DNA of 64,000 bases, from assembly GCF_058153355.1 (NCBI RefSeq), contig NZ_CM177019.1. One strand, 5' to 3'. The notes under the pieces were generated by a model. It was not told the DNA's origin, searched no databases, and saw nothing but the letters and a program-made list of their open reading frames with translations. Within the stretch, counting starts at the first letter, position 1, and the number at the start of each line of letters is the position of its first letter. Below, piece by piece: positions 26,108-62,635 of this stretch. A program made the position numbers and the translations under genes.

Positions 26108-27215
26108 CGCAGGAACTTATAAGCTTGAGAGTTACCGTTCTACGATGAGGACCGAATCCTTATATAAAAACATAGGTAACTCTCATGCTTCATATCCGCA
26201 GTCCCGCCATCAAACTTTAAGCCGATTCGCTCAATCTGGCGGATGATGGTGCTATGGATACACTGATAAACCACAAGTGTAATGCCACTCAGCTTAAGAA
26301 TCACGCAACCAGTGCTCCTGGCCAGGGTTACTTGTTCTTTCCCACTCCCGGTTAGCAGTGGTCAGCGATCAACTGCGTAAGCCGGGCGTATTTATCCCAA
26401 AGCGTGGAGTAATATCAGGTCTACGCTAAAAAACTCAATTTATTCGGTTATCATGCACGCAAAGGGGGCTTGTGGCGAGTATAAAAATAAGTCAGACCCA
26501 AAAACTACGTGGAGCTTTAAACACGGTTCGTATAATTTATTAGCAGCGATTTATTTCTACCCTTCTTTAATCAGTCATCATGATTAAATATTTTTTATCA
26601 CAAGATTATCGCTTCTCTAACATTTTATTTTTTATTTATTATCAATTGATAAGAAAAAATTGTTAGTACGTTTTTGCAAAAAATTAAAAGTGTTGGAATA
26701 CACTTAAACAAATGAACAAAAACCAAACAAACTGAGATTTGCAATCAGAAAAAATTATTCAAGAGAACATCTCTAATTTATTGGTAGCGTCCATGAACGA
26801 TGATTTCCTCACAACCAAAAAGTAAAGAAAATCTTATGATAAGATATATTTGTAAATTAGTATTATTAACGTCAAAGATCTTTTCTTTTCTGCACCCTTA
26901 CTTTGCAACGCATAAAAAACAAATAAAATCAATAATATATGCAGAAAAAGTTATTTTACGTAAAAATAACATTAAATAAATCAAGACTATTGAACATCAC
27001 TAAAACATTAGACGTAATACACATTCACCCCCGCTCCTTGACTCAGGGTTTTAATATTTTTTGTTTCACATCATTGTAGAAAAAATCGCGCATTAAAAAT
27101 GAGTTGTAGAAAAACCGCACAATAAATATTTCATATTTTATCTATTGCGTAGAACTACTATTCAAAAAATCTTATTAATGAGATAATGAAATTACATCGA
27201 TAACGTTCTGATTGC

Positions 27216-27248
27216 AGGCACACTTATCTGGGTGTGCCTCTTTTTTTT
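27216..27248 (+). terminator. Intrinsic-terminator-like hairpin plus T-run about 20 bp upstream of the recombinase start codon
   Basis: aggcacac-ttatctgg-gtgtgcct followed by c and eight T (27241-27248); plus-strand orientation, ending 20 nt before the ATG at 27269. Confidence 0.5.
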
Positions 27249-27268
27249 ACAACTGTACACGGTGGCGT

Positions 27269-27889
27269 ATGACGAGAAAATATCTCACACAGGATGAAGT
27301 CTACAGGCTGATGGATGCAGCCCAGAGCATGTCCTTTCCTGAAAGAAATCGCTGTCTAATTATGATGGCTTTCATTCACGGTTTTAGGGCCAGTGAACTT
27401 CTTGATTTACATTTATCCGATATTGATGCATCAGGAAAACAACTTAATATTCGGCGTATTAAAAATGGTTTCTCGACAACACATCCTCTTCTTCCTGATG
27501 AATATAATTTGATCAAGTTGTGGCTTAAGCAGAGGAAGTTAATTGAAAATGGAGTTGAAGGAGACAGGCTTTTTCTCTCCCGGAAACGCCGCCCTATCAG
27601 CAGACAACATTTTTTTTCGATCATTCGTGAGGCAGGAAGACGTGCAGGATTAGCTGTAAAAGCACATCCTCATATGTTACGTCATGCCTGTGGATTTGCT
27701 CTGGCTGACAATGGTGTCGATACCCGACTACTTCAGGATTATCTGGGTCATCGAAATATTCAGCATACTGTCAGATACACAGCCAGTAATGCTGCTCGAT
27801 TTAAAGGGGTGTGGAAAAAAAGCCTCGTTAAAACAGTACCTTCTGATTCAAAATGTCAGATTCCTACGTTTGCCTCAATTCTTCCATAA
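27269..27889 (+). CDS. ipuA: FimB/FimE-family tyrosine site-specific recombinase (IpuA-like)
   Basis: 206 aa from MTRKYLT; aligns along its length with FimE as I recall it (CLIMMAFIHGFRASELLDLH, HPHMLRHACGFALA, catalytic Tyr region GHRNIQHTVRYTASNA). The last 15 codons lie inside the adjacent inverted-repeat switch. Confidence 0.8.
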   Translation: MTRKYLTQDEVYRLMDAAQSMSFPERNRCLIMMAFIHGFRASELLDLHLSDIDASGKQLNIRRIKNGFSTTHPLLPDEYNLIKLWLKQRKLIENGVEGDRLFLSRKRRPISRQHFFSIIREAGRRAGLAVKAHPHMLRHACGFALADNGVDTRLLQDYLGHRNIQHTVRYTASNAARFKGVWKKSLVKTVPSDSKCQIPTFASILP

Positions 27890-28121
27890 AAAAACAGCCC
27901 ATTCAATTAAATAAAACACATAACATGTTGATATTTCTCGCTAAAGTAAAATAACCCCATGATTTGAAATGATTAACCATAAAGGTCATACCAGTGGTTA
28001 ACTTTCACCCACTCTGTTAAATAACACAAAATTAAAAACAATAAAAGTAATAAAAATTAGATTTATATTCCAAGAAAATTAAATATTCAGGTAATTAAAC
28101 CAAACCTGACATTTTGAATCA
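27844..28121. promoter_or_regulatory. Invertible DNA switch (ipuS-like) bounded by 16-bp perfect inverted repeats
   Basis: tgattcaaaatgtcag at 27844-27859 and its exact reverse complement ctgacattttgaatca at 28106-28121, enclosing about 246 bp of AT-rich DNA between a fim-type recombinase gene and a LuxR-type regulator gene. Confidence 0.7.
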
Positions 28122-28160
28122 AAATGTCAGGTTTTGTAGCAATGGCGTGGACGAGTCTGA

Positions 28161-28955
28161 ATGAAGAAGCCTCTGGTTATTATCAGTGCCTGTCAGTTCA
28201 CCAGGCTGGCACTGGAGTCTCTCATCCCAACGGACAGGTATCTCGTGCGGGTGTACAGCAACGTCACTACAGAGGTTGAATTCGTTTTAAAGACCTCCTG
28301 TGGCTACCTGTTAGCTGATATCCCTTCGCTTCCTTCAGGGGAGTTGGTTCTTCTGGCTTGTCTTGTCCGCTTGCGGAGTGATGCCGGGCAATGGCAGGTC
28401 TGCCTGACCGGTGACTCCAACTGGTTCGATAATGCTCCTGTTGCAAGTCTGTACTACGGCTTCCCACGCATAAGCACCCTGCTGACAGCGAGTCGTTATC
28501 AGAATCAAATTATCCGCTGGTTACTACGTCCTTTGCCCGGCGATATGAGCGATTTCTGGCTCCTGACTGCACGGGAGTTGAGCGTGCTTAAGATTCTGAT
28601 GCAGGGCATGAGTTTCAGTGAGATTGCCCGTTATGAACAACGCAGTTCAAAGACCCTGCATGCGATTGCCACACGGGCATTAATGAAACTTGGACTGGGA
28701 ACTCTGAGCGATTTCAGGCTGCTCTATACGGGATGCGGTGACAGCAGAGTGAAACGGAATATACGGCTACATGCAAGATATGTCGGACAACATTCCGCTC
28801 ATCGACTCACTCAGTATGTGCAGAACATGGTATCCGGAATTCTTTATCCAGAGAAAGTTGCCGTTGGTGAATCAATAAATTCTGACGCCATATCCGGAAA
28901 AGTACTTTCCGGACTAAGAAAAAATATGCCTAAAAAAAGACCAGGTTTGTTATGA
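28161..28955 (+). CDS. ipuR: LuxR-family transcriptional regulator (IpuR-like)
   Basis: 264 aa with C-terminal LuxR HTH (LTARELSVLKILMQGMSFSEIARYEQRSSKTLHAIATRALMKLGL); immediately downstream of the switch. Confidence 0.7.
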   Translation: MKKPLVIISACQFTRLALESLIPTDRYLVRVYSNVTTEVEFVLKTSCGYLLADIPSLPSGELVLLACLVRLRSDAGQWQVCLTGDSNWFDNAPVASLYYGFPRISTLLTASRYQNQIIRWLLRPLPGDMSDFWLLTARELSVLKILMQGMSFSEIARYEQRSSKTLHAIATRALMKLGLGTLSDFRLLYTGCGDSRVKRNIRLHARYVGQHSAHRLTQYVQNMVSGILYPEKVAVGESINSDAISGKVLSGLRKNMPKKRPGLL

Positions 28956-29108
28956 CACAGCAGCGTTGTTACTACCCCCCACTGCGGCGCATACGGACTC
29001 GCTACAGTGTAGGAGCCAAAATATTTCTACTGCTCTGGGCTGCAGGATTGGGAGGCACGCTGTACAGCCTGTACAGCGTGCTGGCGTACTGACATCTGTG
29101 AGGGAAGG

Positions 29109-29870
29109 ATGCGTTTCGTTCTTTTCTGTCCCTCAGGAATTGTACCAGCGCAGTTCGCAGCTCTATCAACCGGTTCTGTCGGCAATGTTACCTGCATTGG
29201 AACAGAAGAGGAGTTACGCAATAAATTGCGGCACAGGCCACAGAGTGTCGTGATATCGGCAGGGCGACCTGCCGAATGCGCTGAAATGTGGTTCCGATTT
29301 TATCGGGATCACTCATTCGTGGTGGTGTTGTGCGTCGCGCCCTTTTTTCTGCCACCGGATGTGAGTATTTCTGGCGTTCTCAAAAACCTGAGGTTACTGA
29401 AACCAGGAATGTCAGTAGAGCATGTCATCAGTATTGCAAATGCCTCTGGTGGGTTTTCAGGGCTGAAACATGCAGAAATTTTGCCAGTTATGGACAGTTA
29501 CTCTGTCTTTATGAAAGAGGTGAATAACCGCACAAAGACAATCGTCATGTCAGAACGCTTCCCGGAAAAGCAAAAGAAGGTGTTGTCGTTGCTTCTTGCC
29601 GGACACAGCTGGGAATACAGTGCGCAGTTTCTCAAAACGGGGATAAGACAGATATGGCTTGCCGAGCAGTCGCTAAAAAAGCGTTGGGGAATACCGGACA
29701 GCATGTCATTGCGGGAAGCCCTGCTGCTGAGCAGCAATAAATTTCACGGTGATGGAAATGCATTGGAAGAAACGAATGCCATGACATTGCGTGAAAACGG
29801 AAATACCAACAGGTATTCCGTGGTGGTAAATGCAGGGACGCAGGCTTTATCTCTGCATAAATATAAATAA
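29109..29870 (+). CDS. Putative second regulator with a degenerate LuxR-like C-terminal HTH
   Basis: 253-aa ORF; segment EKQKKVLSLLLAGHSWEYSAQFLKTGIRQIWLAEQSLKKRWG resembles a LuxR-type HTH; true start codon uncertain. Confidence 0.5.
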   Translation: MRFVLFCPSGIVPAQFAALSTGSVGNVTCIGTEEELRNKLRHRPQSVVISAGRPAECAEMWFRFYRDHSFVVVLCVAPFFLPPDVSISGVLKNLRLLKPGMSVEHVISIANASGGFSGLKHAEILPVMDSYSVFMKEVNNRTKTIVMSERFPEKQKKVLSLLLAGHSWEYSAQFLKTGIRQIWLAEQSLKKRWGIPDSMSLREALLLSSNKFHGDGNALEETNAMTLRENGNTNRYSVVVNAGTQALSLHKYK

Positions 29871-29911
29871 GTGGGAAATTGAAATTAGTTACCAGAATGG
29901 AGAATTTCTTC

Positions 29912-32209
29912 ATGAAAAACAGTAAGGCATTTTACCGCAGCGCATTAGCGACAGCTATTGTTATGGCTCTTTCTGCACCAGCATTCGCTGCTGATAACGC
30001 GGTATCAACTACACCGGTTAAGTTGGATAAAAATAAGACGATTCTGGATCAAGATGTTGTTATTAACGGTGATAACAAGATTACAGCCGTAACAATTGAA
30101 ACGTCAAATTCAGATAAAGATCTTAATGTTACTTTTGGCGGTCACGATATTACCGCCGCATCAACGGTAGACCAAGGTTTCGTTGAAGGTGTAAAAGTTA
30201 GCGGTGACAAAAATGTTGTGATTAATGCTACAGGCTCCACCATCACAGCTCAAGGCGAAGGCACCTATGTCCGGACTGCAATGGTCATTTCTTCTACTGG
30301 CGATGTTGTTGTTAATGGCGGTAATTTCGTTGCAAAAAATGAAAAAGGTAGTGCGACAGGGATATCTCTGGAAGGGGCCACGGGAAATAATGTCACGCTC
30401 AATGGCACAACCATAAACGCTCAAGGTAATAAGAGTTCCAGCAACGGCTCTACGGCAATTTTTGCTCAAAAGGGTAGCGTATCGAATGGTTTTAACGGTG
30501 ATGCAACCGACAACATTACCCTTGCTGGCTCAAACATTATTAATGGTCGGATTGAAACAATAGTTACTGCCGGGAATAAGACGGGAATTCATACAGTCAA
30601 CCTGAATATTAAGGATGGCTCAGTAATTGGGGCGGCTAATAATAAACAAACAATTTATGCCTCTGCTTCGGCACAAGGCGCAGGTTCAGCAACGCAAAAT
30701 TTAAATTTGTCTGTTGCTGATTCAACCATCTACTCTGATGTCCTGGCCCTTTCTGCAAGCGAGAATTCAGCCGGTACCACAACAAATGTAAATATGAACG
30801 TTGCCCGCTCTTACTGGGAAGGTAATGCTTATACGCTCAATAGCGGCGATAAAGCGGGTAGTGATCTGGATATAAATCTTTCCGATAGTTCAGTCTGGAA
30901 AGGCAAAGTTTCAGGGGCAGGAGATGCCAACGTATCTCTGCAAAACGGGTCTGTCTGGAATGTTACGGGTTCCTCAACTGTTGATGCTCTGGCAGTAAAA
31001 GACAGTACGGTTAATATCACTAAGGCTACAGTCAATACTGGCACGTTTGCTTCTCAAAACGGCACTCTGATTGTTGATGCCTCTTCTGAAAACACTCTGG
31101 ATATCAGCGGTAAAGCGAGCGGTGACTTGCGTGTTTACAGTGCGGGTTCATTGGATCTTATCAATGAACAAACGGCATTTATTTCTACCGGCAAAGACAG
31201 CACTCTAAAAGCCACAGGCACAACGGAAGGTGGTCTGTATCAATATGACCTGACACAGGGAGCTGATGGTAACTTTTATTTCGTAAAAAACACGCATAAA
31301 GCATCCAACGCCAGCTCCGTGATTCAGGCAATGGCAGCTGCTCCGGCTAACGTCGCTAATCTGCAGGCTGACACGCTCTCCGCCCGTCAGGATGCTGTCC
31401 GTCTGAGCGAAAATGACGAGGGTGGCGTATGGATTCAGTACTTTGGCGGTAAACAGAAACATACCACCGCAGGAAATGCATCCTATGACCTGGATGTAAA
31501 CGGTGTAATGCTGGGTGGTGATACCCGCTTCATGACTGAAGATGGTAGCTGGCTGGCCGGTGTGGCGATGTCTTCTGCGAAAGGTGACATGACCACCATG
31601 CAGAGCAAAGGTGACACTGAAGGTTACAGCTTCCACGCTTACCTGAGCCGCCAGTATAACAACGGTATCTTCATTGATACTGCTGCACAGTTTGGTCATT
31701 ACAGCAACACGGCAGATGTTCGCCTGATGAATGGTGGCGGTACCATCAAAGCTGACTTTAACACCAATGGTTTCGGTGCGATGGTTAAAGGTGGTTACAC
31801 CTGGGAAGACGGTAATGGCCTGTTTATTCAGCCATATGCCAAACTGTCTGCTCTGACTCTGGAAGGTGTGGATTATCAGCTCAACGGCGTGGACGTTCAT
31901 TCTGACAGCTATAACTCTGTGCTGGGTGAGGCCGGTACGCGCGTGGGTTATGACTTCGCTGTGGGCAACGCGACCGTTAAACCTTATTTAAATCTGGCCG
32001 CACTGAACGAATTCTCTGATGGCAACAAAGTCCGTCTGAGTGATGAGTCTGTCAATGCCAGCATTGACGGTGCAGCATTCCGCGTGGGTGCAGGTGTACA
32101 GGCTGATATCACCAAAAACATGGGAGCATATGCAAGCCTTGACTACACCAAAGGTGACGACATTGAGAACCCGCTACAGGGTGTAGTTGGTATCAATGTG
32201 ACCTGGTAA
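29912..32209 (+). CDS. upaE: Autotransporter adhesin (type Va secretion; UpaE-like)
   Basis: Signal peptide (MKNSKAFYRSALATAIVMALSAPAFAADN), Thr/Ser/Asn-rich repetitive passenger, C-terminal beta-barrel translocator ending ..GVVGINVTW. The symbol is assigned from locus context. Confidence 0.7.
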   Translation: MKNSKAFYRSALATAIVMALSAPAFAADNAVSTTPVKLDKNKTILDQDVVINGDNKITAVTIETSNSDKDLNVTFGGHDITAASTVDQGFVEGVKVSGDKNVVINATGSTITAQGEGTYVRTAMVISSTGDVVVNGGNFVAKNEKGSATGISLEGATGNNVTLNGTTINAQGNKSSSNGSTAIFAQKGSVSNGFNGDATDNITLAGSNIINGRIETIVTAGNKTGIHTVNLNIKDGSVIGAANNKQTIYASASAQGAGSATQNLNLSVADSTIYSDVLALSASENSAGTTTNVNMNVARSYWEGNAYTLNSGDKAGSDLDINLSDSSVWKGKVSGAGDANVSLQNGSVWNVTGSSTVDALAVKDSTVNITKATVNTGTFASQNGTLIVDASSENTLDISGKASGDLRVYSAGSLDLINEQTAFISTGKDSTLKATGTTEGGLYQYDLTQGADGNFYFVKNTHKASNASSVIQAMAAAPANVANLQADTLSARQDAVRLSENDEGGVWIQYFGGKQKHTTAGNASYDLDVNGVMLGGDTRFMTEDGSWLAGVAMSSAKGDMTTMQSKGDTEGYSFHAYLSRQYNNGIFIDTAAQFGHYSNTADVRLMNGGGTIKADFNTNGFGAMVKGGYTWEDGNGLFIQPYAKLSALTLEGVDYQLNGVDVHSDSYNSVLGEAGTRVGYDFAVGNATVKPYLNLAALNEFSDGNKVRLSDESVNASIDGAAFRVGAGVQADITKNMGAYASLDYTKGDDIENPLQGVVGINVTW

Positions 32210-42288: not shown

Positions 42289-45200
42289 TTATTTCATCGC
42301 CTCCTCGCCCGTTGCCGTATTGGCATCCACCGCGGTAATGGTCACTGGCTTCATTTCGTACCCGCCATAGGTCAGGGCGTTAAATGTGAACGTATAGACA
42401 CCAGGCTTGCTGGTACTAAATGTACGCGTGATTTTTCCGCTCACGAAATGGTCATTTTTCGACGGCAGGAACTGATAATCCTTCTCCGTCACCCCTTCCG
42501 GCGTCTGAATGTCGACCCACATATTCCCGCCAACGGGGTTATTTGCCGACATCAGGGTCACCTCCAGCTTCGCAGTCGATTTCCCATCCGCCACCAGCGA
42601 AGGCACATTAGATGATGCGGTGAGCTGCGCGTTTTTATCATCCGCGACGAATTTAGCTTCGGCGGTTTTCGTTGATACCTGACCGTTGTTCTGACTCACT
42701 TGCGCCGTGAGTGTATATGTCGCCGCAACAGTCGTGGTGGCGGTGAAAATAGCCTGCCCTTGCTCATTCGTTGTCGCAGTGCCATTCGGTTCCAGGTTTA
42801 ACGAAGCCGGGCTGGCGGTCAGCGTCACTTCGCTATCTTTCACCAAATTCTTATTGGCATCAGTCACCGTAACTTTATACGTTTGTTTGGCTTTGCCGTC
42901 CGCCAGTGCATAGTTGCCAATCACCTCAATACTGGAGACGGTTGCGGTAGCCTTATCGGCTACAAACGTTATAGTCTGCGTATTCGAAGGCTGGCTATTC
43001 CCTGCCGATGCCGTGATCTCATACGTTCCGGCAGTCACTGAAACCACCTGCAACTCTGCTTTCCCCTCATCGTTGGCTTTCACCCAGACATTATCGCCAG
43101 TAAGCGGCTTGACACCCCGGGGCAGATTAAATGTCACCAGAGTTCCTGGAACAGGGTTACCGTTTTTATCCTCAACGGTCGCCGTCAGCGTAAAGGCATC
43201 TTTGCCGTTTGCCACTTTTTGAACGGCGGTGTCTACCTGCAGGTTTGCCTGACCGGTGCTGGCATCCGCGTTGAATTTCACCGTGACCGTCTTCTGAGAG
43301 TTTTTCACCGCGGCCGCGATTTCAAGTTCCCCTGCAACGGTTGATATCAACTCAATATCCGCTTTACCTGCCGCATTGGTTGTTACTGTATTCCCCGTCT
43401 TGCTAGTCACACCCTGCGGTAAAGTCAGCGTAACTTCTTGCCCCTGCAACGGGTTACCATAGCTGTCCACGACGGTCAGGGTTACCTGGTTAGCAGACTG
43501 TCCATTTGCCAGTTGGTTATTCACCTTCACCGCCATATCACTGATCACTGCCCGGGAAGCGTCGCCTGCAACATTCAGCACCAATGGCTGAGCAACGGCA
43601 TTTTGGCCGTTCACGCGTGGCATGACAGACAACTGACCTGCAGCCGATCCCAGCGTTAAGGTCGCCACGTAGACCCCATTACCTTTCTCTGTCCAGTTTC
43701 CTGCTGAAGGACGCTCACTCCCCGTGCTGGCGGCACCGCTAAACACGGGTGCATCGAGTTTCAGGTTACTAACAGGGTTGCCATACGCATCCTTCACGGT
43801 GAAGGTAAGTTCCGTCGTCGTTTTAACCGTTGGAGTCTTATTGTCCGCAACAAGCGTAGAGTTCGCTGATGACATCTCCCCGGCGATGACCGTCAACTGC
43901 GCGGCTTCGGTGGCTGCTGGCTGGCCGTTGAAGAGCGGCATGACACGAAGCTCGCCCGTCTTTCCGCCTGTGGTCAACGTAGCAACATAGGAACCGTCAC
44001 CTTTTTCGGTCCAACTGGAAATAGTCGCCCCTTCAGAGGCGGTCCCCGTCAAACTTGCCGACAACGAAAGACCACTGATAGCGTTGCCATGCGCATCTTT
44101 CGCCACCAGCGTCACGGTTGTGCTTTCGCCTGCTTTTACGCGATCTGCGGCTACAGACACTGTCGACTGGCCTGAAGATAACGCATCAGCCACCACGGTT
44201 ACTTTTGCCGCGTTTGCTGCCGCATCCTGTCCATTTAACTTCGGCATAACTTCTAATTCACCCGCCGTAGAGCCGAGAGTAATCTGCGCAGTCCACGTCC
44301 CATCACCATTATTTGTCCAGCCAGATGCCGTAGAACCTGCAGCGGCTGCGCCCGATAATGACGGCGCTTCCGGCGTGAGGCTGGTCACAGGGTTGTCATA
44401 GGCATCTTTTGCCGACCAGATTGCCGTAACTGTACCGCCAACCACCGGTTTATCCGGATTCAGGGCGATGGTCGAATGTGATGCATCAAGCGGCCCGGCG
44501 ACAAATTTCAGCGTTTGTTGTAATGTGCCCAGCTGATACTGCTCGCTGAAGGCACGCACAACAACGTTTCCGGCACGGGTCGAAGAAACCGTGGCGCTGT
44601 AAACCCCGGGTTTTATTTCCGAAATGGCACCAACGGTAACACCATTAGTGTCTTGCGGAACAAGTCGCAGGCGGCTGGCTTCTCCCGTCACCGGATTACC
44701 CTCGGAGTCCACCGCAGTCAGCGTCAGCGTGTAGGCTTGCTGACCATCAGCAACCACGTCACCTGACGGCTCGTTAGCGCTCAGGGGGGAGTTTGCCACA
44801 TCCATCATCGTGGCCCGCAGTTCTGCAGTGACGGTTTTGCTCATGCCATCAACGCTAACAGTAATCGTTGCCTCACCTGACTGCGTTCCGGTCGTAAAGA
44901 CAGACTGGTACACCCCTGCTTCAGTTTCGGTGAACTCACCCAGTGTGGGTTTTGCCTGTGATTTAGTGGCCTTCAGGGTACGAGTCACAATATTTCCAGC
45001 CGGTTTGAAGGATAGTTCAGTCTTGATCTGATCTTTCATGCCCTTGACTGGCTGGCCCGCTGCGTCGCGCAGAGACAGCACCAGCGGCTTTTGCTCATTA
45101 CCGTTAGCAAGCATTTGAATACGGCTCTGACCGTCAAGCGTTAACGCCGTGCGATCGGCGCTCATACCAGCTCCGGTAATAACCACTTCTGTCTGCACTC

Positions 45201-46537
45201 GTTTCGAGGCATTGCCTTTGTTATCGTAGGCAACTGCTGAAATCGCATAATAATTGTCTTTGCCTGGACGGTAAGCCGGGAGCGTTACTTGCCACTGACT
45301 ACCCTGACCGGTAATTTTGCCACCTTCAGCCAGTAATGACGGCGCTTCCCACTGCACATTTTTCAGTCCGTGAGTTGCTTTGCTGACCACAAGCCCCAGG
45401 GGAAACCGTCTGACAGCCCTTGCCTTCAATACGCTCAGGAAGAGCAATACGGATCACTTCTGATTTGCGGTACTCAAGAATGATATTGTTATTACGCTCA
45501 ACCAGGTCATAGCGGCTGCCGGCCAGTACCCGACGCTCGCGAATGCTATCCGTATCGAGTTGTTTCTCCAGAGGTTCGCCAATTCGGTAGTTAACTTCCA
45601 GGCCAAAGCGAGTGTCATTCTCACCACTCTTGCCCTGCTTATGCCCGGCGCTCAGTGTCAGAAGAGGCACTGGCGTATAGGTTACCTCGGCAGAAATAGC
45701 ATGCGGGTCTTTCTGGCGTTTATCTTTGCCAAACAGCCCGACTTCATCGCCATAATACTGCTCATACATCAGGCTTGCGCCAAGCTGCGGCCAGGCGGGT
45801 AAATAGCCCTCAGCACGAATATCCCAGCCATTCGCCGGGCGTTCCTGATAATCCTCAACATCCGGCGATTTTTTCCAGCCAGAAGCCCGGATATAACCAT
45901 TGGCGCTCAGTTTCAAATAATCACGCCAGTATTCCGCACCAACACCAATGCGGGTATGACTACGGGATAAATCATGATCGATAAAAGTATTCACCCCCGC
46001 CATCCAGTCATTTCCTGAAAAATGACGCCAGCCAAAACCAATATTTGACTGAGTACGATCGTCGGTACGATGTATTGCCCCCTGAGTGAACAACATATTT
46101 GTCGGCGTGTCATAAATCGGATAAAGCATTTCCAGCGAAGAGTCCTTCAGCGAGAAATTTTTATCGACATTCAGTTTGACGCGCGCAGTACCGTATTTCC
46201 CGAGCCACTCCTGTATTTCCTGGTTAGCTTTAACTGCGGCCATTCCGGTAATAAAGTTACGTGTCGCATCGCTATCTGGCTGACTGCTTAAAAATGTCCC
46301 GGCATTTGCGGCAAACGACGCGACATTTTTCTCCACATTATTATCAGCAGCTACCGTGGTATTTTCCATGCTCAGCCGTGGCTGAACCGCATGCTGCGCG
46401 CGTGCTGCCATTACTGGGGTAAAGGTGACAGCGAGTGGAAAAAGAACCTGAACAGAGATATTTGCCCACGCCACGCAGCGGGCCAGAACTGAATAACGAA
46501 ATCGTGGTTGTTTATGACCTGTTTTATAACGTGACAT
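42289..46537 (-). pseudogene. eaeH: Intimin/invasin-family adhesin EaeH (FdeC-like) split by a frameshift into two overlapping ORFs
   Basis: ORF 45326..46537 (403 aa: signal, LysM-like region, outer-membrane beta-barrel) and ORF 42289..45447 (1052 aa of Big/Ig-like repeats) overlap by 122 nt in different frames. The overlap contains C4 and G4 runs at 45394-45402. Confidence 0.75.
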
Positions 46538-55772: not shown

Positions 55773-56384
<612 letters not shown>

Positions 56385-56458
56385 ACTCCAGGCAAGTTAG
56401 TTTTAAAAAATGACTCACAGGGACATCATGTCCTCAATTTAACTCGGGAAGAAAAGCA

Positions 56459-57046
56459 ATGAAAAAAAAGGTTCTGGCAATAGCTCTGGTAACGGTGTTT
56501 ACCGGCATGGGTGTGGCGCAGGCTGCTGACGTAACAGCTCAGGCTGTAGCGACCTGGTCGGCAACAGCCAAAAAAGACACCACCAGTAAACTGGTGGTGA
56601 CGCCACTCGGTAGCCTGGCGTTCCAGTATGCCGAAGGCATTAAAGGTTTTAACTCACAGAAAGGTCTATTTGACGTGGCTATTGAGGGTGACTCAACGGC
56701 TACCGCCTTTAAACTGACCTCACGTCTTATCACCAACACCTTAACCCAGTTGGATACCTCAGGTTCCACACTGAATGTGGGCGTGGATTATAACGGCGCG
56801 GCAGTCGAAAAAACTGGCGATACCGTGATGATCGATACCGCCAACGGCGTACTGGGCGGCAACCTTAGCCCGCTGGCTAACGGCTACAATGCCAGCAATC
56901 GTACCACCGCACAGGATGGTTTCACCTTCTCCATCATCAGCGGTACCACCAATGGTACCACCGCAGTAACCGATTACAGCACTCTACCGGAAGGCATCTG
57001 GAGCGGCGACGTTAGCGTACAGTTCGACGCTACCTGGACCAGTTGA
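56459..57046 (+). CDS. ecpA: E. coli common pilus major subunit EcpA (MatB)
   Basis: 195 aa, signal peptide (..[10 protein letters not shown]), Thr/Gly-rich pilin. Confidence 0.85.
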
Positions 57047-57103
57047 TCTCTTTGATGTACCAGCAGGGGTAGCCCCCCTGCTTTATTCCTGGACGGAATT
57101 GTT

Positions 57104-57772
57104 ATGAAAAAGCACCTTCTGCCTCTCGCTCTGCTGTTTGCCGGAATATCTCCGGCCCAGGCGCTGGATGTCGGCGATATATCATCGTTTATGAACAGTG
57201 ACAGCAGCTCGCTGAGCAAAACAATCAAAAACAGTACCGACAGTGGTCGCCTCATCAATATCCGTCTCGAACGGCTCTCTTCACCGCTTGACGACGGGCA
57301 GGTTATCGCAATGGACAAGCCGGATGAGTTGCTACTCACTCCCGCCAGCTTGCTGCTACCCGCCCAAGCCAGCGAAGTGATCCGCTTCTTCTATAAGGGA
57401 CCAGCAGATGAAAAAGAGCGCTACTACCGCATTGTCTGGTTTGATCAGGCCCTCAGTGATGCGCAGCGCGATAATGCCAACCGCAGCGCTGTAGCCACAG
57501 CTTCCGCCCGCATCGGCACCATTCTGGTCGTCGCCCCCCGCCAGGCGAACTACCGCTTTCAGTACGCCAACGGCTCCCTGACAAATACAGGAAATGCGAC
57601 GCTGCGGATCCTCGCCTACGGCCCCTGCCTGAAAGCCGCCAATGGTAAGGAGTGTAAAGAGAACTACTACCTGATGCCGGGCAAGTCGCGTCGTTTTAAC
57701 CGCGTGGACACGGCGGATAACAAAGGACGGGTTGCACTTTGGCAGGGTGATAAGTTCATTCCCGTGAAATAG
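57104..57772 (+). CDS. ecpB: Pilus chaperone EcpB
   Basis: 222 aa with signal peptide; operon position. Confidence 0.8.
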
Positions 57773-57797
57773 ATAGCTGTGCAGATGGATAACGACA

Positions 57798-60323
57798 ATG
57801 CCTTTACGACGGTTCTCCCCAGGACTGAAAGCCCAGTTTGCCTTCGGCATGGTCTTTTTGTTCGTTCAGCCCGATGCCAGCGCTGCTGACATAAGCGCGC
57901 AGCAAATAGGTGGGGTGATTATTCCGCAGGCCTTCAGTCAGGCGCTTCAGGACGGCATGAGCGTCCCGCTCTATATTCATCTTGCCGGTAGCCAGGGTCG
58001 CCAGGACGATCAGCGAATCGGCAGCGCTTTTATCTGGTTGGATGATGGACAGTTACGCATCCGGAAAATACAGCTGGAAGAGAGTGAAGATAACGCCAGT
58101 GTCAGCGAACAAACTCGACAGCAGCTGATGGCTCTGGCGAACACCCCGTTCAATGAGGCCCTTACCATCCCCCTGACTGACAACGCGCAGTTGGATCTCA
58201 GCTTGCGCCAACTGCTGCTGCAGCTGGTGGTCAAGCGCGAAGCACTGGGCACCGTACTACGCTCACGTAGCGAAGACATCGGGCAATCCAGTGTTAACAC
58301 CCTCAGCAGTAACCTGAGCTATAACTTCGGCATCTATAACAACCAGTTGCGTAACGGCGGGAACAATACATCCAGCTATCTGTCGCTAAATAACGTGACA
58401 GCACTGCGCGAACATCATGTGGTACTCGACGGCTCGCTGTATGGGATCGGTAGCGGTCAACAGGACAGTGAATTATATAAAGCGATGTATGAACGCGATT
58501 TTGCTGGTCACCGATTTGCCGGTGGAATGCTCGACACCTGGAACTTGCAGTCCTTAGGGCCGATGACCGCCATTTCAGCAGGGAAGATTTACGGCCTTTC
58601 CTGGGGAAACCAGGCCAGCTCCACCATCTTCGACAGCAGCCAGTCGGCCACGCCAGTGATCGCCTTTTTACCTGCAGCGGGCGAAGTACATCTCACCCGT
58701 GATGGGCGGTTACTGAGCGTTCAGAACTTCACCATGGGCAATCATGAAGTGGATACCCGGGGTCTACCGTACGGTATTTACGATGTGGAAGTTGAGGTCA
58801 TCGTTAACGGTCGCGTGATTAGCAAACGCACCCAGCGGGTCAATAAGCTGTTTAGCCGGGGGCGCGGCGTCGGTGCGCCACTGGCGTGGCAAATATGGGG
58901 CGGTAACTTTCATATGGATCGCTGGTCGGAAAACGGGAAAAAGACGCGACCAGCTAAAGATAGCTGGCTAGCAGGTGCCTCGAGCTCCGGCTCACTGAGT
59001 ACGCTTAGCTGGGCGGCAACGGGATATGGATACGATAATCAGGCCGTGGGTGAAACCCGTCTGACGCTGCCGCTTGGGGGGGCGATCAACGTTAACCTGC
59101 AAAATATGCTGGCCAGTGACAGCTCATGGAGCAGCATCGGCAGCATCAGCGCCACTCTACCGGGAGGCTTTAGTTCGCTATGGGTTAATCAGGAAAAAAC
59201 CCGCATTGGCAATCAATTGCGACGTAGCGATGCCGACAACCGTGCAATCGGCGGCACACTCAACCTGAACTCACTGTGGTCGAAGCTGGGCACATTCAGC
59301 ATCAGCTACAATGATGACCGCCGTTACAACAGCCATTATTACACGGCAGATTACTATCAAAATGTCTACAGCGGTACCTTTGGTTCGCTTGGCCTGCGAG
59401 CCGGTATTCAGCGCTATAACAACGGCGACAGCAACGCCAATACAGGGAAATATATCGCTCTCGATCTCTCGCTACCACTGGGCAACTGGTTTAGCGCAGG
59501 GATGACTCATCAAAACGGCTACACCATGGCAAACCTGTCAGCACGCAAGCAGTTTGATGAAGGGACCATTCGCACTGTTGGTGCCAATCTGTCACGAGCC
59601 ATCTCCGGCGATACCGGTGATGACAAAACCCTCAGCGGTGGGGCGTATGCACAGTTCGACGCTCGTTACGCCAGCGGAACGCTGAACGTCAATAGCGCGG
59701 CGGACGGCTACGTCAATACCAACTTAACTGCCAATGGCAGCGTTGGCTGGCAGGGTAAAAACATTGCTGCCAGCGGGCGGACTGATGGCAACGCCGGGGT
59801 GATATTCAATACCGGGCTGGAGGACGACGGTCAGCTCAGCGCCAAAATCAACGGACGGATTTTCCCGCTTAACGGCAAGCGTAACTATCTCCCGCTCTCT
59901 CCGTATGGGAGATATGAGGTGGAGTTGCAGAACAGCAAAAACTCACTCGACAGCTACGATATCGTCAGCGGCCGCAAAAGCCATCTGACCCTCTATCCAG
60001 GCAATGTCGCCGTCATTGAGCCAGAGGTGAAGCAGATGGTTACCGTCTCCGGTCGTATCCGTGCAGAAGACGGCACACTGCTGGCTAACGCACGGATTAA
60101 CAACCATATCGGCCGAACCCGAACCGATGAAAACGGCGAGTTTGTCATGGACGTGGATAAGAAATACCCCACTATCGATTTTCGCTACAGTGGCAATAAA
60201 ACCTGCGAAGTGGCACTTGAACTCGACCAGGCGCGCGGTGCCGTCTGGGTCGGTGATGTGGTCTGCAGCGGCCTCTCATCGTGGGCGGCGGTGACGCAGA
60301 CAGGAGAAGAGAATGAGAGTTAA
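57798..60323 (+). CDS. ecpC: Outer-membrane usher EcpC
   Basis: 841 aa with signal peptide, large beta-rich protein; operon position. Confidence 0.85.
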
Positions 60324-61956
60324 CCTACTGATAGCGATCATAATCTTTGCGCTATTCTGGCCAGCAACCGCGCTCAGAGCTGCAGTGAGCAAAACAATCT
60401 GGGCGGATGCACCGGCACGCGAGTTTGTGTTTGTCGAAAACAACTCAGACGACAACTTTTTCGTCACGCCTGGCGGGGCGCTGGATCCGCGCCTGACCGG
60501 TGCCAACCGCTGGACCGGTTTAAAATACAATGGTTCAGGAACCATCTATCAGCAAAGCCTCGGCTACATTGATAACGGTTACAACACCGGCCTTTATACC
60601 AACTGGAAGTTTGATATGTGGCTGGAAAATTCACCAGTTTCATCTCCTTTAACTGGCTTACGCTGCATCAACTGGTACGCAGGGTGTAATATGACCACCA
60701 GTCTTATCCTGCCGCAAACTACCGACGCCAGTGGATTTTATGGCGCGACGGTGACCAGCGGCGGCGCGAAGTGGATGCACGGCATGTTGTCAGACGCATT
60801 TTACCAGTATATGCAACAAATGCCCGTCGGCAGCAGCTTTACAATGACCATCAATACCTGCCAGACCTCAGTGAACTATGACGCCAGCAGCGGCGCGCGT
60901 TGTAAGGATCAGGCCTCCGGAAACTGGTATGTTCGCAATGTCACCCATACAAAAGCAGCAAATCTGCGGTTGATAAATACCCACTCGCTGGCGGAGGTGT
61001 TTATCAACAGCGACGGGGTGCCGACTCTGGGCGAAGGGAACGCCGACTGCCGGACGCAAACCATCGGCAGCCGTTCAGGATTAAGTTGTAAGATGGTTAA
61101 CTATACCCTGCAAACAAACGGGCTCAGCAACACCTCAATCCATATCTTCCCGGCGATCGCCAACTCGTCGTTGGCCTCGGCCGTCGGGGCGTACGATATG
61201 CAGTTCAGTCTGAATGGCAGTTCATGGAAACCGGTGAGCAATACCGCCTATTACTACACCTTCAACGAGATGAAGAGCGCAGACTCGATCTATGTTTTCT
61301 TCTCGAGCAACTTCTTTAAGCAGATGGTGAACCTGGGGATCAGCGATATCAACACCAAAGATCTATTCAACTTTCGCTTTCAGAACACCACATCACCGGA
61401 GTCTGGCTGGTATGAATTTTCTACCTCCAACACGCTGATTATCAAACCCCGTGATTTCAGCATCAGTATTATCTCCGATGAATATACTCAGACACCGTCG
61501 CGAGAGGGATATGTCGGCAGCGGCGAACCGGCACTCGATTTCGGCTATATCGTAACCACCAGCGGTAAAACAGCTGCCGACGAAGTGCTGATCAAGGTGA
61601 CCGGACCCGCGCAGGTGATTGGCGGACGCTCCTATTGTGTCTTCAGCTCCGATGACGGTAAGGCGAAAGTACCATTCCCGGCGATGCTTTCCTTTATTAC
61701 CCGCAACGGAGCTACAAAAACCTACGATGCCGGGTGCGATGATAGCTGGCGGGATATGACCGATGCGCTGTGGCTAACCACACCGTGGACTGATATCTCT
61801 GGCGAAGTGGGGCAGATGGATAAGACCACTGTCAAATTTTCGATTCCAATGGATAACGCCATTTCGCTGCGTACGATAGATGATAACGGCTGGTTTGGCG
61901 AAGTTAGCGCTTCAGGAGAGATTCATGTTCAGGCGACATGGCGTAACATTAACTAA
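60313..61956 (+). CDS. ecpD: Pilus tip adhesin EcpD
   Basis: 547 aa with signal peptide; overlaps ecpC by 11 nt. Confidence 0.8.
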
Positions 61957-62635
61957 GGCCCTGCTGACAGTGGTCTGTATGCTGGCGACACCTTTGACAC
62001 AGGCGATTTCGGTCGGCAATCTGACATTTTCGCTACCGTCCGAGACTGACTTTGTCAGCAAACGTGTAGTGAATAACAACAAAAGCGCGCGGATATACCG
62101 TATTGCCATCAGTGCTATCGATAGCCCGGGCAGCAGTGAATTGCGCACCCGACCGGTGGATGGTGAACTGCTTTTCGCTCCCCGCCAGCTGGCGTTGCAG
62201 GCTGGTGAGAGCGAGTATTTTAAATTTTACTATCATGGTCCACAGGATAACCGCGAGCGCTACTACCGGGTCTCATTTCGCGAGGTCCCCACTCGCAACC
62301 AGACAAGACGCAGCCCAACCGGCGGCGAGGTCAGCACGGAGCCGGTGGTGGTGATGGATACCATTCTGGTAGTACGACCACGTCAGGTTCAGTTTAAATG
62401 GTCCTTCGACCAGGTGACAGGAACGGTAAGTAACACCGGCAACACGTGGTTTAAGCTACTGATTAAACCAGGATGTGATTCGACCGAAGAGGAAGGCGAC
62501 GCCTGGTATCTACGCCCAGGGGACGTGGTTCATCAGCCTGAGCTACGTCAGCCGGGGAATCATTATCTGGTCTATAACGACAAATTCATTAAGATTAGCG
62601 ATTCCTGTCCGGCTAAGCCCCCTTCGGCAGACTAA
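61925..62635 (+). CDS. ecpE: Pilus chaperone EcpE
   Basis: Start at ATG 61925 ([14 protein letters not shown]) gives 236 aa, overlapping the ecpD 3' end; paralog of EcpB. Confidence 0.75.

Follow-up and report, generated by a model that had tools for sequence, protein, structure and literature searches.

What is the open reading frame of 253 amino acids that lies between a LuxR-type regulator gene and an autotransporter gene in this stretch of 64,000 nucleotides (the window; contig NZ_CM177019.1 of RefSeq assembly GCF_058153355.1)? A first-pass annotation had seen in it a degenerate LuxR-like C-terminal helix-turn-helix (HTH) and had suggested that it may be either an extra regulatory layer or a decayed paralog. 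Its placement at 29109-29870 on the plus strand agrees exactly with the ORF listing, and it does lie between the two genes; it does not fill the whole gap, as a 153-bp spacer (28956-29108) is left on its 5' side and contains a 46-aa ORF. The island comprises the following features:

27269..27889, plus strand: ipbA (fimX/hbiF), tyrosine-type DNA invertase of the FimB type (NCBIfam, 1.6e-72; RefSeq name).
27830..27862, overlapping the 3' end of ipbA: left inverted repeat of hyxS, core TGATTCAAAATGTCAG (inverted-repeat search).
28103..28135: right inverted repeat of hyxS (inverted-repeat search).
28161..28955, plus strand: hyxR, LuxR-family regulator of 264 aa (Pfam GerE, 1.7e-6; RefSeq; hhalign against NarL+RcsB, 94%).
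28952..29092, plus strand: unnamed conserved small ORF of 46 aa (homolog positions, dN/dS).
29109..29870, plus strand: hyxA, 253 aa plus stop, ATG start (ORF listing, RefSeq synteny).
29912..32209, plus strand: hyxB (upaB-type), autotransporter of 765 aa (Pfam Autotransporter, 1.6e-47; TIGR01414, 4.8e-69; RefSeq).

The flagged ORF is hyxA, annotated by RefSeq as "protein HyxA"; it is a real gene and not a new one. The 762-bp ORF carries the label hyxA in strains UTI89, CFT073, S792, SMBL and O157:H7 with the same synteny, annotated hyxA genes have 99.3% DNA identity to the window copy, and along the full 253 aa the encoded protein has 97-98% identity to the HyxA clusters. Immediately 5' of the ATG stands a purine-rich run, GAGGGAAGG, that resembles a Shine-Dalgarno site. 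Gene and neighbours are those of HyxA from Escherichia coli pathogenicity island PAI-X (UTI89, CFT073, EC958; WP_001213047.1, WP_001213046.1; 97-99% protein identity), from which the window differs by a few amino-acid substitutions (five non-synonymous differences to UTI89) and by a 3'-terminal frameshift in the neighbouring ipbA. The locus as a whole is ipbA(fimX)-hyxS-hyxR-hyxA-hyxB of island PAI-X, located between betA and ykgH(-ykgGFE). Megablast found the block 27000-30100 in 1920 of 5426 complete E. coli genomes, and the RefSeq names across the matches are ipbA (= FimX / HbiF), hyxR, hyxA and hyxB. The autotransporter ORF is listed as 29879..32209, and an ATG at 29912 agrees with the annotated start. 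The autotransporter behind hyxA varies among strains, with 765 aa in the window and in HyxB of UTI89 and CFT073 and 858 aa in S792 (L002 5914-8490, corresponding to window 29912-32209), where its RefSeq name is generic only.

A regulator that had escaped description is thus not what the window contains: hyxA has a name, a complemented mutant phenotype (PMC3789825) and a published designation as a putative regulator (PMC11294581), and the CFT073 annotation, which had been suggested for comparison, itself lists hyxA between betA and ykgH. The first-pass annotation had likened the upstream gene to ipuR and assumed a single regulator in the described locus. That statement refers to the ipu locus, which lies elsewhere and is described as a two-gene operon (PMC6083910), and not to PAI-X, whose published description includes hyxA. 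In ipuA/ipuB-ipuS-ipuR-upaE, the adjacent invertase genes ipuA and ipuB accompany a two-gene ipuR-upaE operon (PMC6083910), whereas the window has the single invertase gene ipbA and CFT073 itself names the present genes hyxR, hyxA and hyxB. The IpuR-UpaE locus of CFT073 follows the same logic of FimB-type invertase, invertible promoter, LuxR-type regulator and autotransporter (PMC6083910), but occupies another chromosomal site, consists of other genes and is described without a hyxA-like gene between regulator and autotransporter.

The invertible switch hyxS is described in PMC6083910 and PMC11294581, and the hyxRAB operon together with hyxS in PMC12922286, PMC6083910 and PMC11294581; the operon is reported to be up-regulated in Kapi1 lysogens (PMC12922286). 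In the window, the right arm of hyxS is itself a near-perfect 39-nt palindrome (28099-28137), and the orientation of the switch matches that in UTI89, S792, O157 and SMBL. A simple sigma-70 scan retrieved no promoter inside hyxS, and no terminator-like site was seen between hyxR and hyxA. The ipbA copy of the window has a run of A7 within 27816-27889 instead of A8 as in UTI89 and S792; this 1-nt deletion replaces the last four codons and adds 19 aa at the C-terminus, reading through the left hyxS inverted repeat, and leaves the region of the catalytic Tyr, upstream of the indel, unaffected. An inverted switch was considered as the source of the odd C-terminus and rejected, since four reference strains show the same collinear arrangement here and the A-run deletion is responsible.

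The spacer between hyxR and hyxA is itself coding. The ATG of the small ORF (MTQQRCYYPPLRRIRTRYSVGAKIFLLLWAAGLGGTLYSLYSVLAY) overlaps the hyxR stop (ATGA, 28952) and its end lies 16 nt before the hyxA ATG. In the 46-aa protein, a basic N-terminus is joined by a single hydrophobic helix, and the protein matches no family in Pfam or NCBIfam. It is annotated occasionally, and its database names, from Escherichia and Salmonella only, are limited to "hypothetical protein" and "membrane protein". Homologs of 44-48 aa, all with ATG start and TGA stop, precede HyxA homologs in loci L007, L008, L016 and L017 and in the Salmonella loci L012 and L018; L009/L010 and L013 yielded none. Across the final 30 codons, pS is 0.5-0.7, pN 0.17-0.30 and dN/dS 0.11-0.36. 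Since the small ORF is present in both E. coli and Salmonella, the pair conserved between the two is small ORF plus hyxA and not hyxR plus hyxA. This pair stands directly behind FimB-type switches, before the autotransporter gene in E. coli and before the T1 glycan cluster in Salmonella.

At coverage of at least 80%, hyxA is present in 1853 of the 5426 complete E. coli genomes. Among 40 rows taken evenly down the ranking of hyxA matches, 39 are full-length collinear 762-bp matches that carry the annotation hyxA. Some strains have disrupted copies: hyxA is interrupted by IS1203 in O157 644-PT8 and affected by a deletion in XH989. In O157:H7 FRIK804 (L003 769-4103), hyxA is intact amid annotated pseudogenes, namely ipbA, hyxR (with an internal stop) and the adhesin gene. 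For the more divergent pairs of E. coli sequences, the hyxA dN/dS is 0.26-0.35 (Nei-Gojobori, from roughly 10 synonymous and 10-12 non-synonymous substitutions), and that of hyxR in the same pairs is 0.24-0.27. A word-indexed search for homologs went no further than HyxA of E. coli and translations of frameshifted pseudogenes (P0029-31), whereas exhaustive phmmer searching of 1.84 billion cluster representatives gave 28 matches, including seven true distant homologs with 31-53% identity; the match to P0049, a repeat protein of 1015 aa, was judged spurious and discarded. The nine-member family alignment has identities of 27-52% and 17 invariant columns, 11 of which fall within the HTH region 151-208. 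Conservation ends at about residue 210, and the last ~45 residues are Escherichia-specific.

The genomic contexts of these homologs are recurrent. The order (invertase) - hyxR-like - hyxA-like - autotransporter is found in L007, L008 and L016, and L017 also has a hyxR-like gene upstream of its HyxA homolog. In L009-L011 and one E. coli chromosome, a hyxR-like and a hyxA-like gene precede a CaiF/GrlA-type regulator gene, and the HyxA homolog on that chromosome is named "hypothetical protein" by PGAP. In Salmonella L012 and L018, the HyxA homolog comes next after an invertase and a switch; downstream of it, L012 resembles the published T1 cluster in carrying glf and genes for glycosyltransferases and ABC transporters. 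L013, from another enterobacterial genus (80% DNA identity to E. coli), has a HyxA homolog alone beside ldhA. No HyxR remnant is detectable in the Salmonella loci or in L013. A contig search gave matches only in Escherichia sp. MOD1-EC7003 and S. enterica subsp. diarizonae. From these contexts, surface-structure loci recurrently have a HyxA-type protein encoded at their head, in many cases after a phase switch, and HyxR is not strictly needed; an obligate HyxR-HyxA heterodimer was accordingly down-weighted, given the Salmonella and L013 homologs. The closest described parallel is the head of the Salmonella T1 cluster, STM0716-STM0718, which likewise has a FimX-like invertase, a switch, a homolog of the 46-aa ORF and a HyxA homolog (P0038, 40% identity here; 39% given for STM0718 in PMC11294581). 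It differs in having no hyxR and in being followed by polysaccharide genes (glf, glycosyltransferases, ABC transporter) and not by an autotransporter gene.

Sequence profiles do not recognise a domain in HyxA. Searches of Pfam and NCBIfam gave no GerE, Response_reg or other credible domain at E<=1, none of the nine family members matched GerE or Response_reg in Pfam at E<=10, and a search of all PDB sequences with the family profile brought up nothing beyond a chance match to ribosomal protein eS24. BLASTP found nothing between HyxA and HyxR. By hhalign, the HyxA family was not significantly similar to the HyxR family (probability 0.25%) or to EcpR (0.16%), and against both the sole aligned piece of HyxA sat in the expected HTH register. 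The comparison with NarL+RcsB (reference sequences 100% identical to PDB chains) was weak (E=0.02, probability 2.4%) and collinear over 115 columns, and placed HyxA 157-184 on NarL 161-189, the HTH register expected from the structural model; HyxR, as positive control, reached a probability of 94% against the same references. An ungapped comparison of HyxA 151-208 with RcsB gave 13 of 58 identical positions (z=4.8 against shuffles) in a register chosen beforehand, and is therefore supportive only.

A different picture was obtained from structure prediction. The AF2 model of HyxA, made with the nine-sequence alignment, has a mean pLDDT of 77 and a pTM of 0.72, and four of the five models agree; it divides the protein into four parts:

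29109..29465, plus strand: receiver-like (beta-alpha)5 domain, residues 1-119 (AF2, pLDDT mostly 84-93 from residue 31).
29499..29549, plus strand: interdomain linker helix, residues 131-147 (AF2 and alignment; invariant N139 and T142 of an EVNxRT motif).
29559..29732, plus strand: predicted four-helix LuxR/GerE-type HTH, residues 151-208 (AF2, Foldseek, hhalign register).
29733..29867, plus strand: Escherichia-specific tail, residues 209-253 (unconserved in homologs, low model confidence).

The N-terminal part is predicted to have the (beta-alpha)5 receiver fold of NarL/FixJ regulators, and a four-helix HTH bundle C-terminal to the linker appears in the predicted structure only, with helices at 153-163, 168-175, 179-193 and 201-205 (pLDDT 90-97). 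The loop between the receiver-like domain and helix 131-147 is poorly modelled. Foldseek aligned the model over both domains with full-length FixJ, VraR, StyR, RcsB, DesR and LiaR. The degenerate LuxR-like HTH of the first-pass annotation is thus found in the predicted structure, at residues ~151-208 and not at the extreme C-terminus. The profile search named there as a check (GerE/LuxR HMM on the translation) detects no HTH, and using its outcome as grounds for refutation would have led to wrong rejection. Because no sequence profile recognises the domains, the fold assignment rests on one AF2 model made with the 9-sequence alignment.

According to receiver registers taken from the AF2 strands, the family alignment and hhalign, Ser50 occupies the position of the phospho-acceptor Asp, which is S, F or I across the family and Asp in no member. 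C7-P8-S9 replaces the acidic pair and V76-A77 the Thr-Ala after strand 4; only the Lys-Pro after strand 5 (K98-P99) is kept. The receiver-like domain is therefore predicted to have no phosphorylation site and to be non-phosphorylatable. No histidine kinase gene is present in the 27.2-32.2 kb island, which contains only ipbA, hyxR, the small ORF, hyxA and hyxB, and no kinase gene was found adjoining the HyxA homologs. In the HTH, L159, L163, E169, A172, G178, R180, Q181, E186, L189, R192 and P196 are invariant. Two residues of RcsB contact bases in its structure with DNA (PMC5829831), and one of them, K180, is the counterpart of R180 in the alignment. W183 and Q187 align with the base-contacting NarL K188 and K192, and L184 with RcsB S184; with W183, L184 and Q187 at these base-contact positions, the recognition helix of HyxA is atypical. 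The HTH domain has a net positive charge, and DNA binding via R180 and this charge is plausible.

Among characterised proteins, HyxA is predicted to resemble RcsB and the phosphorylation-independent auxiliary FixJ/NarL-type regulators of enterobacteria (RcsA, BglJ, MatA/EcpR, GadE, RflM) in combining a receiver-like domain with a C-terminal four-helix LuxR-type HTH. Chains of RcsB, which uses auxiliary FixJ/NarL-type partners (PMC5829831), are among the best Foldseek matches, and the ecpR gene, like hyxA, adjoins surface-structure genes. HyxA differs from these proteins in having no significant sequence similarity to them and in its extra 45-residue tail. HyxR, from the same operon, has a similar secondary-structure prediction (alternating beta-alpha N-terminal part plus HTH), and its AF2 model is too poor for fold comparison (pLDDT 52); hyxR-like and hyxA-like genes are found together at most loci outside Salmonella. 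It is recognised by GerE (1.7e-6) and hhalign, whereas HyxA is recognised by neither, and the two sequences are not detectably related; HyxR keeps an invariant Asp, D53, at the end of the third strand, where HyxA has Ser50. Taken together, HyxA is most likely a very divergent orphan regulator of the NarL/FixJ class, predicted to act independently of phosphorylation and made only in the switch-ON phase.

Two further observations were made elsewhere in the window. At 55794-62635 (plus strand), ORF order and sizes look like the ecpR-ecpABCDE common-pilus operon; its first ORF (ecpR, 55794-56384) carries a LuxR-type HTH-like segment and is probably another LuxR-type regulator of a surface structure. 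At 42289-46537 (minus strand), overlapping ORFs of 1052 and 403 aa stand where CFT073 has one fdeC gene of 4251 bp, so that this inverse autotransporter adhesin gene may be frameshifted in the window genome.

Published phenotypes connect hyxA with the cell envelope. Both hyxA and hyxR were found in a transposon screen for serum resistance in the ST131 strain EC958. The EC958 hyxA mutant lost ~3 logs of viability in serum, and its O-antigen was shifted, with short chains (2-6 units) enriched and very long ones reduced; complementation of the phenotype was achieved (PMC3789825). These effects could be partly polar or indirect. A 2024 study of the Salmonella T1 antigen terms hyxA and hyxR "putative transcriptional regulators" and gives 39% identity to HyxA for STM0718, which there follows a FimX-like invertase and an identical-repeat switch; when T1 antigen was produced in an E. 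coli host, no role of STM0718 could be detected (PMC11294581).

The explanation that best covers these data, and that we consider probable, is that hyxA belongs to a hyxS-driven operon and that HyxA is a non-phosphorylatable NarL/FixJ-class regulator that alters transcription of envelope genes. Transcription would start from a promoter on hyxS, which according to the literature is invertible by IpbA/FimX, and hyxA would be cotranscribed with hyxR, the 46-aa small ORF and the autotransporter gene hyxB; because the promoter rides on the invertible element, HyxA would be made only in the switch-ON phase, as the literature indicates. The protein may then dimerise with itself or with a FixJ/NarL-type protein such as RcsB or HyxR, and the helix with the invariant R180-Q181 may bind DNA. 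Its putative targets are cell-envelope genes, including a determinant of O-antigen modal chain length, and regulation of this kind would explain the published serum sensitivity and LPS-ladder phenotype.

The main rival, which we regard as rather unlikely, also has HyxA keep the NarL/FixJ fold, but without DNA binding: the protein would act through a protein partner, as an anti-activator or co-regulator of HyxR, RcsB or another FixJ-type protein, or under the small membrane protein. W183, L184 and Q187 at the base-contact positions of NarL and RcsB speak for it, as do the GerE profile that does not match the domain, the use of auxiliary partners by RcsB (PMC5829831) and the gene neighbourhood, where a partner gene nearly always lies upstream, hyxR-like in L007, L008, L009-11, L016 and L017, with the small ORF upstream of hyxA in E. 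coli and Salmonella. It is weakened by the location of the family's most conserved residues on the predicted recognition helix (G178, R180, Q181, E186, L189, R192), a degree of conservation expected of a DNA or ligand surface and not of a vestigial one, and by the Salmonella and L013 homologs, which have no HyxR remnant. Direct action on O-antigen assembly, for example by binding Wzz or Wzy on the cytoplasmic side with the HTH-like domain as a protein-interaction module, would fit the sole published phenotype, a change in O-antigen chain-length distribution, as well as the Salmonella homolog at the head of a surface-polysaccharide cluster and the small membrane protein encoded just 5' of hyxA. 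We nevertheless hold this very unlikely, as the fold is that of DNA-binding response regulators, Pfam and NCBIfam searches show no similarity of HyxA to polysaccharide-assembly proteins and no membrane segment is present, and HyxA-like genes also precede autotransporter and CaiF/GrlA regulator genes and not glycan genes alone.

Hardly credible is the remaining alternative, in which hyxA would be a functionless leftover of a LuxR-type gene, whether decayed paralog or pseudogene remnant. It could appeal to the missing profile match to any family, to the C-terminal 45 residues that are unconserved and modelled with low confidence, and to the disrupted copies in O157 644-PT8 (IS1203) and XH989 (deletion). 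Against these stand the intact 762 bp in 39 of the 40 sampled genomes, the intact gene of O157:H7 FRIK804 amid pseudogenised neighbours, a dN/dS below 1, invariant motifs common to homologs down to 27% identity, a confidently predicted fold and the complemented mutant phenotype (PMC3789825); similarity to HyxR is undetectable (BLASTP; hhalign, 0.25%), and HyxA has a conserved family of its own. Prevalence, intactness, dN/dS and conserved homologs together exclude a decayed paralog for practical purposes. A further idea concerns the small ORF: its product, as a small inner-membrane protein, and HyxA might form an unrecognised two-part module in which the former controls the orphan pseudo-receiver/HTH regulator and so resets O-antigen chain length each time a phase-variable surface structure is turned ON. 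We offer this as a speculative and improbable idea.

The first-pass annotation is borne out in seeing a regulator-like protein with a LuxR-type HTH, but not in its locus, the novelty of the gene or its decay. With hyxA already known, the idea of a regulator that nobody had described dissolves, and what the analysis adds, a fold assignment and the small ORF, is incremental, modest but useful. The former gives a fold to a protein that is blank in Pfam and NCBIfam and for which the literature offers "no functional prediction", and the predicted atypical NarL/FixJ-type fold supplies residues to mutate, R180 and Q181. The small ORF is to be considered in reading insertion mutants of hyxR or hyxA. 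For the family, the comparison indicates that HyxA homologs travel with FimB-type phase switches before differing surface-structure genes in both Escherichia and Salmonella.
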